Part shown: positions 5,701-36,722 of the stretch, one piece after another
Layout of the letters: every line of letters starts with the position of its first letter
Numbering within the stretch: the stretch's first letter is position 1
Source of the DNA: Escherichia phage vB_Eco_BGP
Strand: one strand, 5' to 3'
Sequence record: OZ035849
DNA length: 64,000 nt
The notes under the pieces: generated by a model
The model's input: only the letters and a program-made list of their open reading frames with translations
Told to the model about the DNA's origin: nothing
Databases searched by the model: none
Translations under genes and position numbers: made by a program

Positions 5701-6650
5701 TCTTCGTTTGGACGAATATTAGAATTAGTCGTTATAATGCGTAAACGTGCTTTACTATCCCCGTCAAACAATCTCCACAATTTCTCATTATCATCAAACA
5801 TCAAGAAACCGTCAATCGATGTACGGCCTTCAATGGAATGAGTTCCAACTTCTTGTACTGAAGTCGTTTCATCGTATGTAGTAACAATTGTATGATAAAG
5901 TGGATTCAGTTTATCTAAATCAACGAAATTAATAATATCGCCATGATTAGCAAATCTTGGAAGTTTAACATTAATTGGTGCAGCAGAAGTAAATCTACGT
6001 ACGATAAAATCATTTGATTGCGCTTGATAAGTATTCGCTGGTGTTACAACTACAGCTTCTCTACTATAATCAGCAACATACATTTGCCACAGACGATTAC
6101 TAAAAATTAAAACTAGCTGTGACTTTGGATGAGTCATTAGTACTGAACGTACTTGCTCGCCTCTGAAGTTTACAATACTTTGCACCGGAGCTACAATTAA
6201 AACTTGGTTAACTCCAGGTTTTCCTCCAATATCTTGGAGAACGATAGTATCACCATCAATTGGGGTAGATGGTAAAGTAAATGTAATATCATTACCAGCT
6301 GCGGTGTTAACCGAAATAGCTTCACCAGATTTTAATTGATATGAACCAGATGAAACCGTAATCCAGTTAGCATCGGTACGTAATGCTCTCCAGCGTCCGC
6401 TATTAAAAGCTCCTGCCGGTTTTGGAATATCATTTATAGCAGCCCAAAAGCGGTTATCATAAATGATTACAAAATCTTTTAAATATCCACGAGTTGGATC
6501 GTATTGTTGAACTGTGTTTTCTTGAATTAAGTAATCAACGTTAACACCGTCAGTTCCTACGGTACGATCAGCTAAAGCTACGTTGATTATTTTATCACCA
6601 CCTGCGTCCAGACCGTCTTCTGCTCTGAACTTTCTTTTAATCTCGGCCAT
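2781..6650 (-). CDS. 34: long tail fiber proximal subunit gp34
   Basis: ORF track 1289 aa, identical length to T4 gp34; beta-rich repetitive fiber sequence; late promoter upstream. Confidence 0.95.
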   Translation of the reverse strand: MAEIKRKFRAEDGLDAGGDKIINVALADRTVGTDGVNVDYLIQENTVQQYDPTRGYLKDFVIIYDNRFWAAINDIPKPAGAFNSGRWRALRTDANWITVSSGSYQLKSGEAISVNTAAGNDITFTLPSTPIDGDTIVLQDIGGKPGVNQVLIVAPVQSIVNFRGEQVRSVLMTHPKSQLVLIFSNRLWQMYVADYSREAVVVTPANTYQAQSNDFIVRRFTSAAPINVKLPRFANHGDIINFVDLDKLNPLYHTIVTTYDETTSVQEVGTHSIEGRTSIDGFLMFDDNEKLWRLFDGDSKARLRIITTNSNIRPNEEVMVFGANNGTTQTIELQLPTNISVGDTVKISMNYMRKGQTVKIKAAGEDKIASSVQLLQFPKRSEYPPETKWVTVQELVFNGETNYVPVLQLAYIEDSDGKYWVVQQNVPTVERVDSLNDSTRARLGVIALATQAQANVDLENSPQKELAITPETLANRTATETRRGIARIATTAQVNQNTTFSFADDLIITPKKLNERTATETRRGVAEIATQQETNTGTDDTTIITPKKLQARQGSESLSGIVTFVSTAGATPASSRELNGTNVYNKNTNNLVVSPKALDQYKATPTQQGAVILAVESEVIAGQSQEGWANAVVTPETLHKKTSTDGRIGLIEIATQSEVNTGTDYTRAVTPKTLNDRRATESLSGIAEIATQVEFDAGVDDTRISTPLKIKTRFNSTDRTSVVALSGLVESGTLWDHYTLNILEANETQRGTLRVATQVEAAAGTLDNVLITPKKLLGTKSTESQEGVIKVATQSETVTGTSANTAVSPKNLKWIVQSEPTWAATTAIRGFVKTSSGSITFVGNDTAGSTQDLELYEKNSYAVSPYELNRVLANYLPLKAKAADTNLLDGLDSSQFIRRDIAQTVNGSLTLTQQTNLSAPLVSSSTATFGGSVSANSTLTISNTGTATRLIFEKGPQTGTNPAQTMTIRVWGNQFGGGSDTMRSTVFEVGDETSNHFYSQRNKAGNITFSINGTVMPINVNASGSLNANGVATFGSSVTANGEFISKSANAFRAINGDYGFFIRNDAANTYFMLTASGDQTGGFNGLRPLAINNASGQVTIGESLIIAKGATINSGGLTVNSRIRSQGTKTSDLYTRAPTSDTVGFWSIDINDSATYNQFPGYFKMVEKTNEVTGLPYLERGEEVKSPGTLTQFGNTLDSLYQDWITYPTTPEARTTRWTRTWQKTKNSWSSFVQVFDGGNPPQPSDIGALPSDNATMGNLTIRDFLRIGNVRIIPDPVNKTVKFEWVE

Positions 6651-21101: not shown

Positions 21102-21155
21102 GTTTACAAGTCCCTCGTGTTGTGTTATAGTAGTCTTACTGACATAACATGAGGA
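21102..21155 (+). promoter_or_regulatory. early promoter cassette, copy 1 of a 54-bp exact repeat
   Basis: gtttac -35, 17-nt spacer, tatagt -10, imperfect stem-loop, SD gagga; identical 54 nt at 35377-35430. Confidence 0.7.
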
Positions 21156-29269: not shown

Positions 29270-29466
29270 TGAAATTCTTTTTAGGTCAAACTGTTGAATT
29301 AAAGGGAGTTGGTATACCTGGATTAATTTCTAAGGTTCTACCTCCATTTAAATGGAGTGGTATTCAAATAAAAGAGGCTTATATTGTTTCCTGGGTAGAT
29401 GGAAATGAAGACCTTCGTATGGGTGATGAATTATCTCCTATCTACGGATTAAAGGAATTAGTATGA
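29269..29466 (+). CDS. hypothetical protein
   Basis: 65 aa ORF, start overlaps upstream stop. Confidence 0.6.
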   Translation: MKFFLGQTVELKGVGIPGLISKVLPPFKWSGIQIKEAYIVSWVDGNEDLRMGDELSPIYGLKELV

Positions 29467-30956: not shown

Positions 30957-31225
30957 TGTTTGTTGTTCACACTATTTATGAAAATGAAGGTAATACTACA
31001 CGTGATTACGGTCACGTAAATCAATTTTTTAGATGCAATCCAGAATTCCGAGCTCAAAAAGACGAACGAATTTTTAAAAAATGTGTAGAGCAAGGTTTCA
31101 TTTATATCAAGCACTGGATGCAAGGAAATAAAGTTAGAACTACATATCATAGGTCTTTAACTGAGCTTAATGATGAATTGATTTATAATAGAGCTGTAAA
31201 TCAAACTCTGAAGGATGAACAATGA
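30956..31225 (+). CDS. hypothetical protein
   Basis: 89 aa ORF directly upstream of DNA ligase, overlapping start/stop. Confidence 0.65.
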   Translation: MFVVHTIYENEGNTTRDYGHVNQFFRCNPEFRAQKDERIFKKCVEQGFIYIKHWMQGNKVRTTYHRSLTELNDELIYNRAVNQTLKDEQ

Positions 31226-32685
31226 TTCTTAAAATTCTGAACGAAATAGCATCTATTGGTTCAACTAAGCAGAAGCAAGCAATTCTTGAAAAGAATAAAG
31301 ATAATGAATTGCTTAAACGAGTATATCGTCTGACTTATTCTCGTGGGTTGCAGTATTATATCAAGAAATGGCCTAAACCTGGTATTGCTACCCAGAGTTT
31401 TGGAATGTTGACTCTTACCGATATGCTTGACTTCATTGAATTCACATTAGCTACTCGGAAATTGACTGGAAATGCAGCAATTGAGGAATTAACTGGATAT
31501 ATCACCGATGGTAAAAAAGATGATGTTGAAGTTTTGCGTCGAGTGATGATGCGAGACCTTGAATGTGGTGCTTCAGTATCTATTGCAAACAAAGTTTGGC
31601 CAGGTTTAATTCCTGAACAACCTCAAATGCTGGCAAGTTCTTATGATGAAAAAGGCATTAATAAGAATATCAAATTTCCAGCCTTTGCCCAGTTAAAAGC
31701 TGATGGGGCTCGGTGCTTTGCCGAAGTCAGAGGTGATGAATTAGATGATGTTCGTCTTTTATCACGAGCCGGTAATGAATATCTAGGATTAGATCTTCTT
31801 AAGGAAGAATTAATCAAAATGACCGCTGAAGCCCGCCAGATTCATCCAGAAGGCGTGTTAATTGATGGCGAATTGGTATACCATGAGCAAGTTAAAAAGG
31901 AGCCAGAAGGCCTAGATTTTCTTTTTGATGCTTATCCTGAAATTAGTAAAGCCAAAGAATTCGCCGAAGTAGCTGAATCACGTACTACTTCTAATGGAAT
32001 CGCTAATAAATCTTTAAAGGGAACCATTTCCGAAAAAGAAGCTCAATGCATGAAGTTTCAGGTCTGGGATTATGTCCCGTTGGTAGAAATATACGGTCTT
32101 CCGGCGTTTCGTTTGAAATATGATGTACGTTTTTCTAAACTAGAACAAATGACATCAGGCTATGATAAAGTAATTTTAATTGAAAACCAGGTAGTAAATA
32201 ACCTAGATGAAGCTAAGGTAATTTATAAAAAGTATATTGACCAAGGTCTTGAAGGTATTATTCTCAAAAATATCGATGGATTATGGGAAAATGCTCGTTC
32301 AAAAAATCTCTATAAATTTAAAGAAGTAATTGATGTTGATTTAAAAATTGTAGGAATTTATCCTCACCGTAAAGACCCTACTAAAGCGGGTGGATTTATT
32401 CTTGAGTCAGAGTGTGGAAAAATTAAGGTAAATGCTGGTTCAGGCTTAAAAGATAAAGCCGGTGTAAAATCACATGAACTTGACCGTACTCGCATTATGG
32501 AAAACCAAAATTATTATATTGGAAAAATTCTAGAGTGCGAATGCAACGGTTGGTTAAAATCTGATGGCCGCACTGATTACGTTAAATTATTTCTTCCGAT
32601 TGCGATTCGTTTACGTGAAGATAAAACTAAAGCTAATACATTCGAGGATGTATTTGGTGATTTTCATGAGGTAACTGGTCTATGA
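31222..32685 (+). CDS. 30: ATP-dependent DNA ligase
   Basis: 487 aa, MILKILNEIASIGSTKQKQAILEKNKDNELLKRVY...; adenylation lysine motif KADGAR; same length as T4 ligase. Confidence 0.97.
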   Translation: MILKILNEIASIGSTKQKQAILEKNKDNELLKRVYRLTYSRGLQYYIKKWPKPGIATQSFGMLTLTDMLDFIEFTLATRKLTGNAAIEELTGYITDGKKDDVEVLRRVMMRDLECGASVSIANKVWPGLIPEQPQMLASSYDEKGINKNIKFPAFAQLKADGARCFAEVRGDELDDVRLLSRAGNEYLGLDLLKEELIKMTAEARQIHPEGVLIDGELVYHEQVKKEPEGLDFLFDAYPEISKAKEFAEVAESRTTSNGIANKSLKGTISEKEAQCMKFQVWDYVPLVEIYGLPAFRLKYDVRFSKLEQMTSGYDKVILIENQVVNNLDEAKVIYKKYIDQGLEGIILKNIDGLWENARSKNLYKFKEVIDVDLKIVGIYPHRKDPTKAGGFILESECGKIKVNAGSGLKDKAGVKSHELDRTRIMENQNYYIGKILECECNGWLKSDGRTDYVKLFLPIAIRLREDKTKANTFEDVFGDFHEVTGL

Positions 32686-32870
32686 AAGCTTACTTAGAAA
32701 CAATTGTCATTGCTCAAAAAGAAGGTGGAGATGTTTCTACTTCTGTATCACAAGTCATTCTCGAATTTGTAGATGCATACGCTTATAATAAATTTACAGA
32801 AACATTTGATGCCTATGAAAAAGGACCAAAGTTTGAAATATATCGTACTCTCTTACCACTAGATTACTAA
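32682..32870 (+). CDS. hypothetical protein
   Basis: 62 aa ORF overlapping ligase stop; followed by hairpin aggccttcgggcct. Confidence 0.55.
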   Translation: MKAYLETIVIAQKEGGDVSTSVSQVILEFVDAYAYNKFTETFDAYEKGPKFEIYRTLLPLDY

Positions 32871-32891
32871 AGGCCTTCGGGCCTTTAATTT

Positions 32892-32899
32892 TATAAATA
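32892..32899 (+). promoter_or_regulatory. late promoter TATAAATA upstream of alt
   Basis: tataaata ~20 nt upstream of the alt ATG; consistent with late expression of a virion-packaged protein. Confidence 0.65.
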
Positions 32900-32919: not shown

Positions 32920-35016
32920 ATGATGGAACTAATTACAGAATTATTTGACGAAGATACTACTCTTCCGATTACAAACTTAAATCCAAAGAAGAAAATACCA
33001 CAAATTTTTTCAGTTCATGTTGATGATGCAATTGAACAACCAGGCTTTCGTTTATGTACCTATACATCTGGAGGTGATACTAATCGTGATTTAAAGATGG
33101 GCGATAAAATGATGCATATTGTTCCTTTTACATTAACCGCTAAAGGTTCAATTGCTAAATTGAAAGGTCTTGGTCCAAGCCCAATTAATTATATCAATTC
33201 GGTTTTTACTGTTGCAATGCAAACAATGCGTCAGTATAAAATTGATGCCTGTATGCTCCGTATTCTTAAGTCTAAAACTGCTGGTCAAGCTCGACAAATT
33301 CAAGTTATTGCTGATAGACTTATCCGTAGTCGTTCAGGTGGCAGATACGTCCTTCTTAAGGAACTCTGGGATTATGATAAAAAGTATGCATATATTCTTA
33401 TACATCGCAAAAATGTATCACTAGAAGACATTCCAGGGGTTCCGGAAATTAGTACCGAGCTCTTTACTAAAGTTGAATCGAAGGTCGGTGATGTTTATAT
33501 CAATAAAGATACTGGAGCTCAAGTAACTAAAAATGAGGCAATTGCAGCATCTATTGCACAAGAAAATGATAAACGTTCTGACCAAGCTGTAATCGTTAAA
33601 GTTAAAATTTCCCGTAGAGCAATTGCACAAAGTCAATCATTAGAGTCTTCTAGATTTGAAAGTGAATTATTCCAGAAGTATGAATCTACAGCAGCTAATT
33701 TTAATAAACCAGCTACTGCACCTTTAATTCCCGAAGCAGAAGAAATGAAAATTGGAATTAATTCATTAGCTTCTAAAACTAAGGCAGCAAAAATCATTGC
33801 CGAAGGAACTGCAGATGAACTTCATTATGACTATAAATTCTTTTCAAAAAGTGAGGTTAATGAAGTTTCTGAAAAAATTAAAGATGTAATTCTTAATGCG
33901 ATTAAAAATGAACCGACTACTTCAATAAAATGTTTAGAGAAATACGCAGCAGCTGTTAATCAATTATTTGAAGAATATAAAGATACTTGGCTTGATAAAC
34001 ATAATAAAACCCGTAAAGGACAGCCAGATGAAGTCTGGGAAGAAATAACTAAAAATTCCTGGAACGCGACAAAAACTAAATTCCTCAAAAGAATGATTTA
34101 TAGTTTCTCTGGAATTGGTGCAGGTCCAATGATTGATATTACTATTGCCCGTGATGGTTCTAAATATACTCCATCACAAAAGCGTGGCATTAGAGAGTAT
34201 TGCGGTTCAGGATATACTGACATCAATAATCTTCTTTTGGGTCGTTATGATCCAGAACGTTATGAAGTAATGAGTGAAAAAGAAATTGAAGCTGCTATAA
34301 CTAATTTAGATTCTGCTTTTGAAAATGGTGATCGTATACCAGAAGGCATTACAGTTTATCGTGCTCAAAGTATGACTGCTCCTATATACGAAGCACTAGT
34401 TAAAAATAAAGTATTCTATTTCAGAAATTTTGTATCTACTTCTTTAACTCCTATCATTTTTGGACGTTTTGGAATTACACATGCTGGTATTGGTCTTTTA
34501 GAACCAGAAGCTCGCAATGAATTAACAGTTGATAAAAATGAAGAAGGAATAACTATTAATCCAAACGAAATAAGAGCGTATAAAGAAAATCCTGAATACG
34601 TTAAAGTTCAAATAGGATGGGCAATTGATGGAGCTCATAAAGTTAATGTTGTATATCCAGGAAGTCTCGGAATAGCAACAGAAGCTGAAGTTATTCTACC
34701 GCGTGGATTGATGGTCAAAGTTAATAAAATAACTGATGCTTCTAATAATGACGGAACAACATCTAATAATACAAAACTCATTCAAGCTGAAGTTATGACC
34801 ACGGAAGAGCTCACCGAATCGGTAATCTATGATGGAGACCATTTAATGGAAACTGGTGAATTGGTTGCAATGACAGGTGATATTGAAATAGAAGACAGAG
34901 TTGACTTTGCATCATTTGTTTCATCAAACGTTAAACAGAAAGTAGAATCATCTCTTGGAATTATTGCGTCTTGCATAGATATTACAAACATGCCTTACAA
35001 GTTCGTTCAAGGATAA
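32920..35016 (+). CDS. alt: Alt, capsid-packaged ADP-ribosyltransferase
   Basis: 698 aa; ART motifs in order R (VYRAQSM), STS (FVSTSLT), E-x-E (ATEAEVILP); N-terminus MMELITELF...; T4 Alt is ~682 aa. Confidence 0.92.
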   Translation: MMELITELFDEDTTLPITNLNPKKKIPQIFSVHVDDAIEQPGFRLCTYTSGGDTNRDLKMGDKMMHIVPFTLTAKGSIAKLKGLGPSPINYINSVFTVAMQTMRQYKIDACMLRILKSKTAGQARQIQVIADRLIRSRSGGRYVLLKELWDYDKKYAYILIHRKNVSLEDIPGVPEISTELFTKVESKVGDVYINKDTGAQVTKNEAIAASIAQENDKRSDQAVIVKVKISRRAIAQSQSLESSRFESELFQKYESTAANFNKPATAPLIPEAEEMKIGINSLASKTKAAKIIAEGTADELHYDYKFFSKSEVNEVSEKIKDVILNAIKNEPTTSIKCLEKYAAAVNQLFEEYKDTWLDKHNKTRKGQPDEVWEEITKNSWNATKTKFLKRMIYSFSGIGAGPMIDITIARDGSKYTPSQKRGIREYCGSGYTDINNLLLGRYDPERYEVMSEKEIEAAITNLDSAFENGDRIPEGITVYRAQSMTAPIYEALVKNKVFYFRNFVSTSLTPIIFGRFGITHAGIGLLEPEARNELTVDKNEEGITINPNEIRAYKENPEYVKVQIGWAIDGAHKVNVVYPGSLGIATEAEVILPRGLMVKVNKITDASNNDGTTSNNTKLIQAEVMTTEELTESVIYDGDHLMETGELVAMTGDIEIEDRVDFASFVSSNVKQKVESSLGIIASCIDITNMPYKFVQG

Positions 35017-35019
35017 ATC

Positions 35020-35405
35020 ATGGAACTTATTACAGAATTATTTGACGGCGCTTCGGCGCCGGTTGTTAACTTAAATCCTAAGCATAAAATACCTCAAATT
35101 TTTGCTATTCAAGCCGGTGAAGAAAGCGTACTTCCTGGATTTAGATTTTGTACATACACCTCTGACGGTGATACAAATAAAACGTTAAACCAGGCGATAA
35201 AATGATGCATATCGTAATGATAGGTGTTAATGAGAAACTATCATTAGTTAAGCTTAAAAACTTGAGTGGAAATCCAATTGGTGTCATTAATGCTGTTTTT
35301 GATACTGCTCTTCAAACAATGAAACAGTATAAAATCGACGCATGCCTATTCCGCGTACTAAAAAGTTCAAAATGTAGTTTACAAGTCCCTCGTGTTGTGT
35401 TATAG
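35020..35405 (+). pseudogene. partial tandem duplicate of the alt N-terminus, split into two overlapping ORFs (61 and 67 aa)
   Basis: MELITELFDG...PGFRFCTYTSDGDTN and MMHIV...QTMKQYKIDACLFRVLKS parallel Alt residues 1-125; frames joined by ATGA overlap; 3' end runs into the promoter repeat. Confidence 0.6.
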
Positions 35406-35430
35406 TAGTCTTACTGACATAACATGAGGA
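35377..35430 (+). promoter_or_regulatory. early promoter cassette, copy 2 of the 54-bp exact repeat
   Basis: Identical to 21102-21155 over 54 nt (gtttacaagtccctcgtgttgtgttatagtagtcttactgacataacatgagga). Confidence 0.7.
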
Positions 35431-35437
35431 ACACAAA

Positions 35438-35728
35438 ATGAAATCTTCTTTACGCTTTTTAGGTCAAGAACTTGTAGTTGAAGGCGTTATTCCTGCTGAT
35501 AATGCTTTTAACGAAGCGGTTTACGATGAATTTATTAAAATTTTTGGAACAGATAAAAAGTTCGGAATTTTTCCTTCTGAAAATTTTTCAAAGCCAGAAC
35601 AGACTGAAAGTATTTTTCAGGGTGTAGTAACAGGTAAATTTGAGTCAGAAGCTCCGGTAAAAATTGAAGTTTATATTGAAGACAGTTTAGTTGCTTCAGT
35701 TTCTGCTTTCATTTCATTCCGCAAATAA
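35438..35728 (+). CDS. hypothetical protein
   Basis: 96 aa ORF driven by promoter cassette copy 2; followed by bidirectional terminator. Confidence 0.65.
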   Translation: MKSSLRFLGQELVVEGVIPADNAFNEAVYDEFIKIFGTDKKFGIFPSENFSKPEQTESIFQGVVTGKFESEAPVKIEVYIEDSLVASVSAFISFRK

Positions 35729-35734
35729 AAATAT

Positions 35735-35752
35735 GGGGACCGAAAGGTCCCC
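35735..35752. terminator. bidirectional GC hairpin terminator between the plus-strand early block and gene 54
   Basis: ggggaccgaaaggtcccc perfect hairpin with T-runs on both sides. Confidence 0.75.
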
Positions 35753-35756
35753 GTTG

Positions 35757-36722
35757 TTATATTGCTCCTAATATTTTACTTTGCGAATTGACAATTCCTG
35801 TCATAGTATTAATGTTTGAAATGCTTCCTGCAGTTCCACCTAATCTACTGAGTCGTGAAAGCGAATTAGATAGTCCAGTAACACCTCCACTATTTCCGAG
35901 AACGCTTTGAATACCATTTATAGCAGCAGATTCAAGCCATTCAAGCGCAGCTTGCCTATCAACTGCTCCAGCCTGCATCACTCTATACGCAAAAGTAACA
36001 TCAAATGTAGTTATTTGGTTATCTCCATCATATGATAGCTCAGGAGCGCTCACTGATATTGGAATGCATCCGGTGAACATCACCGCAGTATGAGGCAATC
36101 CATTGCGAGAATGAAGATTAACCTGAATATCTGCCTCGACATCTTGCGGCAAAGCACGTAGTCCAGTTACTGGGTCTTGAACAGAGTTAACCCAGTCTTG
36201 CATTGCACGATAGTTACAAGCTTCTGAATCCATTCTAAATGAAATAACCAAAGGGTCTAATTCTCTCCCAGTTATACGAATATTAGGAGAATTATAGTTC
36301 CAGTCAGTTTCATAGGATAATCTATTCTCTGGCATTTTTACAGAGTATATCATCAATCCAGATGAGTTATATGCCATGTTAAAGAAGTCAATTAAATATG
36401 TACCAACTGTAAATGAGCCTAATAAACTTTGAACTGTACGTTGACTCATGGCACCAATAAGATATTTACTAATCCCTGATTTTCTTATCAGTTTTTGTGT
36501 GCCAGCTGTAATTAGCGTGGTAATTCCCTGATTAATATCACCTTGAGTTAATCCTAACCAATTTGAATTTAGGCCCAAGTTATTATAAGAAAAGTTGCTA
36601 ATTGAACTTATCAACGAAGAGCTTTTAGTTGATGGAGTTGTTGCAAAAACGCAGCTAAACATATTATTACGTTGGAAATCTGCGTTTATTGCTTGATTAT
36701 TAAATTCCTCTAAAGAATACAT
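35757..36722 (-). CDS. 54: baseplate tail-tube initiator gp54
   Basis: 321 aa, MYSLEEFNNQAINADFQRNNMFSCVFATTPSTKSS..., as T4 gp54. Confidence 0.95.
   Translation of the reverse strand: MYSLEEFNNQAINADFQRNNMFSCVFATTPSTKSSSLISSISNFSYNNLGLNSNWLGLTQGDINQGITTLITAGTQKLIRKSGISKYLIGAMSQRTVQSLLGSFTVGTYLIDFFNMAYNSSGLMIYSVKMPENRLSYETDWNYNSPNIRITGRELDPLVISFRMDSEACNYRAMQDWVNSVQDPVTGLRALPQDVEADIQVNLHSRNGLPHTAVMFTGCIPISVSAPELSYDGDNQITTFDVTFAYRVMQAGAVDRQAALEWLESAAINGIQSVLGNSGGVTGLSNSLSRLSRLGGTAGSISNINTMTGIVNSQSKILGAI

Follow-up and report, generated by a model that had tools for sequence, protein, structure and literature searches.

One of the questions raised by the alt region of this phage is why two very small reading frames should sit directly behind alt, and whether they specify proteins of their own or are what is left of a larger gene. 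The window, by which is meant the whole stretch of 64,000 nucleotides analysed here, comes from Escherichia phage vB_Eco_BGP (record OZ035849), which by its matches is a Tequatrovirus. An earlier note on this DNA, made from the letters alone, had seen in the two frames a partial duplicate of the 5' end of alt, cut off by a promoter cassette, and had left the choice between a decaying pseudogene and small proteins that retain a packaging signal. The answer reached here is that the stretch from 35020 to 35377 is very probably a decaying pseudogene remnant of a second, tandem paralogue of alt, referred to as alt2. What is demonstrated is the homology to Alt, the intact state that came first, the exact point at which the deletion joined its ends, the place of the slip and the decay seen in relatives.

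The two small frames and their relation to Alt

On the plus strand the region runs from gene 30, for DNA ligase (31222-32685), through alt.1 (32682-32870) to alt itself (32923-35016), which encodes the full-length packaged ADP-ribosyltransferase and is the intact paralogue of the remnant. The alt frame opens at 32920, with the T4 annotation taking the second ATG as the start; the gene is annotated as alt in both T4T and T4, and a Pfam search places PF03496 (ADPrib_exo_Tox) at residues 378-627 of the window's Alt with an E value of 1.9e-36. Behind it on the same strand lie alt.-1 (35020-35205, 61 aa), alt.-2 (35202-35405, 67 aa) and alt.-3 (35438-35728, 96 aa), these being the names that the three small frames carry in T4 and T4T, and 3' of alt.-3 come genes 54 and 48 on the minus strand. 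Both mini-ORFs are present as first described, and the ATG at 35202 does overlap the TGA at 35203-35205 to give the ATGA that had been noticed. Minus-strand ORFs of 33-49 aa also cross the region and were set aside, there being no evidence in their support. A terminator-like hairpin reading on both strands (GGGGACC-GAAA-GGTCCCC, 35733-35754) stands between the convergent alt.-3 and 54 genes, and the annotation of Yersinia phage fPS-2 places terminators on both strands at the same alt.-3/54 boundary.

How are the mini-ORFs related to Alt? In BLASTP against the window's own Alt, Alt.-1 matches residues 1-62 (36/62 identical, E 1e-24) and Alt.-2 matches residues 63-117 (32/55 identical, E 9e-22), with 58% amino acid identity between Alt 1-117 and the remnant as a whole. 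The paralogy proposed earlier is borne out, with its extent drawn in from about residue 125 to residue 117. At the DNA level, families of repeats with a spacing of about 2,094 nt tie 32920-33228 to 35017-35321 (repeat finder and DNA alignment), and the nucleotide alignment with the alt 5' end that had been suggested as a check has a positive outcome. The two products fall side by side on the Alt-like profile phrog_802 (Alt.-1 at positions 2-60, Alt.-2 at 64-120), and each also matches a further profile over its whole length, namely phrog_23015 for Alt.-1 (E 7.8e-46, 1-61/61) and phrog_15247 for Alt.-2 (E 2.3e-49, 1-67/67). The repaired remnant of 128 aa has no Pfam match. T4 Alt (gpAlt), which is packaged and ADP-ribosylates RNA polymerase, is thus a paralogue with an identical MELITELFD N-terminus, but unlike T4 Alt the remnant has neither a catalytic domain nor a single ORF, and in T4 proteomics its protein product was not detected. 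The homology to the Alt N-terminus is present, and the R / STS / ExE ADP-ribosyltransferase catalytic domain (PF03496, R-S-E type) is absent.

The third small frame is a different matter. The earlier note had placed alt.-1, alt.-2 and alt.-3 of T4 in this position, perhaps all as paralogues of the Alt N-terminus; this holds for the first two and fails for alt.-3, an intact gene whose product shows no similarity to Alt (E 2.2) and is a member of PF17602 (DUF5498; E 5.4e-64), which rules it out as a part of the duplication. C-terminal extension mutants of T4 Alt.-3 escape the CmdTAC defence by blocking the degradation of CmdA, the wild-type protein being neither the trigger of CmdTAC nor required (PMC11618068). 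A likeness of 34 nt at 71% identity between the start of gene 30.5 (29277-29310) and the start of alt.-3 (35455-35488) was judged to be probably due to chance.

The mini-ORFs of the window are the alt.-1 and alt.-2 of T4 (AAD42534 and AAD42535; UniProt P39495 and P39494), which occupy the same place between alt and alt.-3 and share with the window the lengths of 61 and 67 aa, the ATGA overlap, the deletion junction and the A4 frameshift, and T4T is identical to the window both at the junction of the 1,699-nt deletion and at the A5-to-A4 site. Only point differences separate the window from T4, G49D in Alt.-1 (35165, GGC to GAC) and G22S in Alt.-2 (35266, GGT to AGT), both nonsynonymous and, among the sampled alleles, found together in just the window and one IMG/VR contig. 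Over 34900-35800 a megablast against GenBank phages returns 502 matching Tequatrovirus records, with T4 at 98.0% nucleotide identity and three records (UoN_LDJ77_1, vB_Eco_EL and vB_Eco_Geo) at 100%. The damage to the second copy has been described before: the T4 record AF158101 refers for alt.-1 and alt.-2 to 'a duplication of the first part of gene alt, into which a stop codon and new ...', the T4T record to 'a deletion and further frame shift in the second copy of gene alt', Nolan et al. 2006 place T4 alt.-1 and alt.-2 among paralogous duplications of alt (PMC1524935), and the annotators of fPS-2 call the homologue a 'putative pseudogene'. The mini-ORFs are, in short, an already known damaged duplicate of alt, real but ordinary.

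The intact second gene and the two lesions

What did the second copy look like before it was damaged? When the remnant is repaired and used as a 118-aa query in tblastn, it is found as one uninterrupted piece within an Alt-like ADP-ribosyltransferase gene in most Tequatroviruses. In PP01 (L004:4501-6558), RB27 (L005), vB_SsoM_113 (L006), EcNP1 (L014) and T6 (L017), the five intact loci used here, this alt2 gene has 2,058 nt, encodes 685 aa, occupies the same place as the remnant, begins 3 nt past alt and ends just 5' of alt.-3. It goes under several names, being 'alt.-2' in RB27 and RB51 and 'alt_2' in vB_SsoM_113. The junction is spanned as in the window in only 90 of the 502 matching records, a proportion with which an evenly spaced sample of the match ranking agrees, and intact alt2 is found in about 80% of Tequatrovirus records; T6 carries the gene and T2 probably does too.

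Over their whole lengths Alt2 and Alt are 42% identical, with about 65% identity over the first 235 residues and a much lower value in the centre, and Alt2 has the PF03496 domain, with R / S-T-S / E-x-E motifs that align with those of Alt. Among the five intact copies dN/dS is 0.02-0.06, and over the first 116 codons any pair of them differs at 0-1 nonsynonymous versus 7-21 synonymous sites. Because domain and motifs are retained and dN/dS is so low, alt2 is a functional gene in those phages that keep an intact copy; a search of the literature found no studies of Alt2 targets. The remnant occupies the orthologous locus, the first 348 nt being 96-97% identical to intact alt2, in contrast to only about 70% identity with alt, and the flanks, the 3' end and the promoter being the same. 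The difference is that intact alt2 has its ADP-ribosyltransferase domain and is under purifying selection, whereas the copy in the window is frameshifted and short of 1,699 nt.

A separate observation concerns ECML-134, where a single alt gene of 686 aa (L013:1460-3520) is a hybrid of alt and alt2, 96-98% identical to alt from nt 1 to about 450 and, from about 500 on, matching alt2 at 81-99% identity in each block of 100 nt. It looks as though the two tandem copies recombined unequally inside the N-terminal module that both conserve.

The first lesion of the remnant is a deletion. By blastn the window and the intact loci are colinear in two blocks, one reaching 35366 and the other beginning at 35358, and the 1,699 nt that separate these blocks in the intact loci are absent. 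In the intact gene CTAAAGAGT stands at codons 114-116 (PP01 L004 4840-4848) and CTAAAAAGT stands 11 nt 5' of the stop (6539-6547 of the same locus), so that the deletion ends share a microhomology of 8/9 nt; in the window a single CTAAAAAGT forms the junction on the plus strand (35358-35366, from the blastn offsets and a three-way junction display). The sequence that follows it, TCAAAATGTAG (35367-35377, with the stop TAG at 35375-35377), is the native 3' end of alt2 and is identical to PP01 L004 6548-6558. The ADP-ribosyltransferase domain, residues 416-620 of intact alt2, lies wholly within the deleted 1,699 nt. The deletion is out of frame (1,699 = 3 x 566 + 1), and the native stop is out of frame with alt.-2. 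The second lesion is the loss of one A from a run of five, which in the window compared with PP01 is now an A4 run at 35179-35182 on the plus strand. Five As are present in the 5 intact alleles and also in AV121, SG1, AV119 and fPS-2, and four in 12 deletion alleles. The 1-nt frameshift that had been noticed relative to alt is therefore real, but its site is not near 35195 as was thought. As a result of these lesions alt.-1 consists of alt2 codons 1-53 followed by 8 out-of-frame codons and a TGA, and alt.-2 runs from a formerly internal Met62-Met63 through alt2 codon 116 and then, out of frame, past the junction.

The following course of events accounts for these observations. The ancestral locus, which most Tequatroviruses still have, comprised alt, 3 nt and an alt2 gene of 2,058 nt whose stop codon abuts the alt.-3 early promoter. 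In the lineage of T4 and the window, illegitimate recombination between the 9-nt near-repeats CTAAAGAGT and CTAAAAAGT removed 1,699 nt, and alt2 lost codons 117 to about 680 and with them its entire ADP-ribosyltransferase domain. The slip in the A5 run, which probably came later than the deletion, split the leftover into alt.-1 and alt.-2, ending the first frame at a TGA that overlaps the former Met62-Met63, with alt.-2 beginning at this pre-existing Met-Met. The ATGA overlap and the end of an ORF within a promoter are by-products of the two lesions.

The element into which alt.-2 runs is a 54-nt cassette of early promoter and leader at 35377-35430 on the plus strand, which serves alt.-3, is outside the pseudogene and is an exact repeat of 21102-21155, upstream of alc. 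It consists of a -35 element GTTTAC (35377-35382) that matches the T4 early -35, an extended -10 TGtTATAGT (hexamer 35401-35406) and a Shine-Dalgarno sequence GAGGA (35426-35430), and it can also be read as a promoter-like site with TTTACA, a 17-nt spacer, TATAGT and an upstream TG, giving 10/12 matches. The GTTTAC begins with the G of the alt2 stop codon, and the second ORF ends, as had been reported, within this copy of the cassette, its TAG (35403-35405) lying inside the -10 hexamer. Both alc and alt.-3 are early in T4 in RNA and in protein (PMC9697503).

Could the second copy, then, have been partial from the outset, a duplication of the 5' part of alt that acquired a stop and a new start, or one truncated by an inserted promoter cassette? 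The AF158101 wording speaks for a duplication of just the first part of alt, and the end of alt.-2 within a repeated promoter element fits a cassette that did the cutting. These origins are nevertheless given an extremely small probability, since a full-length alt2 with identical flanks is present in most relatives, the last 11-20 nt of alt2 with the native stop are kept 3' of the junction, and the remnant is much closer to intact alt2 than to alt, while the low dN/dS and the wide distribution of intact alt2 make it implausible as a secondary reconstruction. The cassette did not truncate alt2, because in relatives with the intact gene, PP01 among them, the same promoter as in the window comes directly after its stop, and the cassette is to be seen as a neighbour of the pseudogene and not as the cause of its truncation. 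The earlier claim that the duplicate breaks off exactly where the cassette begins also fails, as similarity to the alt 5' end stops at 35366, 11 nt 5' of the repeat, with the end of alt2 between. What had been taken for a partial duplicate cut off by the cassette is instead a tandem paralogue that once had its full length and then lost an internal part.

The cassette shares its anatomy with the PeSL cassettes of T4-type phages (Arbiol et al. 2010; Comeau et al. 2014), that is, an upstream stop codon in an A-rich stretch, sigma-70-like -35 and -10 elements, a stem-loop over the -10, a Shine-Dalgarno sequence with a start codon, and repetition in the genome; here, too, the A-rich stretch 5' of the cassette holds the stop codon of the upstream gene. 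A PeSL-mediated deletion was considered and rejected. In contrast to an exchange between two PeSL elements, the alt2 deletion has its left end in coding sequence (codons 114-116) and not in a cassette and its right end 11-19 nt upstream of the -35, and the ends share only the 8/9-nt microhomology.

Decay among the deletion-type alleles

If the remnant is a pseudogene, what has become of it in other phages? The comparison covered 16 deletion alleles (the window, 13 GenBank phages and 2 IMG/VR contigs) and 5 intact alleles; in IMG/VR the junction sequence is found in only these 2 contigs, and the allele survey rests on GenBank phage records. The same junction is present in 16/16 deletion alleles, and because it is common to them all it would imply one deletion event. 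From this shared state the alleles can be arranged by the lesions that they carry. AV121 (n=1) has the deletion only and a single ORF of 128 aa. In SG1, AV119 and fPS-2 (n=3) the deletion is accompanied by a nonsense mutation at codon 6 (GAA to TAA), and in the window, T4T and the 2 IMG/VR contigs (n=4) by the slip to A4. Deletion, nonsense codon and A4 occur together with no further indel in ELT1, ACG-C40, pSe_SNUABM_01 and SP21535 (n=4), and with a further indel in HY03, CE1, IME537 and F1 (n=4), this being a 7-nt duplication in HY03, a change from T5 to T4 that cuts alt.-2 to 39 aa in CE1 and IME537, and a 9-nt deletion in F1. Overall E6* is carried by 11/16 deletion alleles and A4 by 12/16. 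A 61-nt probe with the E6* variant has an exact match in 45/489 records, and all of the nonsense alleles inspected (11/11) are of the deletion type.

The pattern of substitution points the same way. Those private to the deletion alleles comprise 8 nonsynonymous (the nonsense mutation included) versus 8 synonymous, in contrast to 1 nonsynonymous versus 29 synonymous segregating sites in the same 348 nt of the intact copies (Fisher p 3.6e-4), with substitutions and lesions counted per site, with no resolved tree, in a small sample of 16 deletion and 5 intact alleles. On such counts the remnant appears to be unconstrained. Remnant alleles also show SNP mosaicism, being mixed with patterns of the intact alleles, which makes recombination between alleles at this locus evident from the alignments. 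Of the two alternatives left by the earlier note, that of a decaying pseudogene is strongly supported, with relatives that show continued decay and with T4 proteomics in which neither protein appears.

Expression and possible products

Upstream of alt, a terminator-like hairpin after alt.1 (32868-32887) is followed by a late-promoter motif TATAAATA (32892-32899), an arrangement that fits late expression of alt for packaging. A terminator scan found no terminator between alt and the remnant. An AGGA Shine-Dalgarno-like motif lies on the plus strand within the end of alt (35010-35013), 6 nt 5' of the alt.-1 ATG, and goes back to the second gene in its undamaged form, the alignment showing the same sequence 5' of intact alt2 in PP01. 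The remnant is still transcribed together with alt, and as alt.-1 keeps the ribosome-binding site of alt2, short peptides may be made; these would presumably be unstable or inert, with no catalytic domain, no selection and no function.

For T4 there are time-resolved omics data, in which alt.-1 and alt.-2 RNA is detected and classed as 'middle', and the protein entry for both is NA, that is, not detected in a whole-cell time course (PMC9697503, Table S2). The same proteome includes Alt.-3 (early), Alt.1 (62 aa), gp30.4 (68 aa) and gp30.5 (65 aa) (PMC9697503). Translation of alt.-1 and alt.-2 in T4 and in the window is plausible, since the ORFs are open, a good AGGA site stands 5' of alt.-1 and RNA is present; the shotgun non-detection of two such small proteins is weak negative evidence, consistent with the decay in relatives.

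Do the mini-ORFs then encode functional small proteins, with Alt.-1 packaged or competing with Alt, or with the two forming a coupled two-peptide module? The idea draws on frames that are open in both the window and T4, on the AGGA site, on an ATGA overlap that permits coupling and on the RNA detected in T4, and it is helped by the N-terminus. MELITELFD is common to Alt, Alt2 and Alt.-1, and its I-T-E at residues 4-6 is, on general gp21 specificity, presumably the (L/I)-x-E site at which gp21 cleaves Alt. In the T4 head gp21 cuts small N-terminal peptides from IPI-III and from gpAlt, of which about 40 copies are present in the core (PMC9958956), and with the first 9 aa the same as in Alt, Alt.-1 might conceivably still carry a packaging signal. 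Yet the stop at codon 6 in half of the deletion-type records (45) speaks against Alt.-1 having any role maintained by selection, alt.-2 is again frameshifted or truncated in HY03, CE1 and IME537, and substitutions are relaxed. Neither protein is seen in T4 proteomics, although neighbours of 62-68 aa are, and the split falls within the N-terminal module, which is conserved and about 235 aa long. With no protein detected in T4 and ongoing decay in relatives, the suggestion of functional mini-proteins is left as highly improbable. A narrower version, to which we allow a very faint chance, is that a prohead-targeting, cleavable N-terminus may survive in Alt.-1, or in the 128-aa product left unsplit in alleles of the AV121 type, and that the fragment might then be packaged or compete with Alt. 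An AlphaFold2 model of the Alt N-terminal module has a mean pLDDT of 49 and is unusable (the alignment held 5 close homologues only), no solved structure covers the Alt N-terminus, and in precomputed Pfam matches the region is marked by PF26846.

Could the remnant matter as nucleic acid rather than as protein? A hairpin at about 35388-35429, overlapping the -10, has a predicted stability of -23.3 kcal/mol (z -3.6, with 0/200 shuffles as stable), and no T-run follows it. Its 3' arm contains the Shine-Dalgarno sequence of alt.-3 and its 5' arm precedes the point at which early transcription is expected to start; because of this, read-through transcripts from alt could mask the alt.-3 Shine-Dalgarno sequence, and promoter-proximal transcripts would not. 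The known cases behind this analogy are e, soc and I-TevI of T4. The pairing, along with the mosaic SNPs that suggest recombination with intact alleles, might be taken to mean that the remnant serves as a spacer or structure modulating read-through from alt to alt.-3, or as a patch of homology for regaining alt2. We find such a non-coding role scarcely conceivable, as the hairpin is in the cassette and not in the remnant, is also present in phages with intact alt2, and the remnant itself accommodates indels of 7 and 9 nt. Structured RNA in the remnant was likewise rejected, with no Rfam match in 35020-35436 and three sub-threshold matches further downstream.

As a decaying pseudogene the pair alt.-1/alt.-2 is itself of little weight, the T4 annotation having already recorded a damaged alt duplicate. 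Were the fragment nonetheless to compete with Alt for incorporation into the core, it might tune the dose of injected ADP-ribosyltransferase. The locus also offers a clean natural series of decay, in which the intact gene is followed by alleles with just the deletion, then by those with an added nonsense codon, frameshift or both, and finally by those with further indels, and it shows, in the alt/alt2 hybrid of ECML-134, the instability between tandem paralogues. A useful side point is that T4, the model phage, is the exception, in that most Tequatroviruses keep a second, strongly conserved Alt-like ADP-ribosyltransferase.
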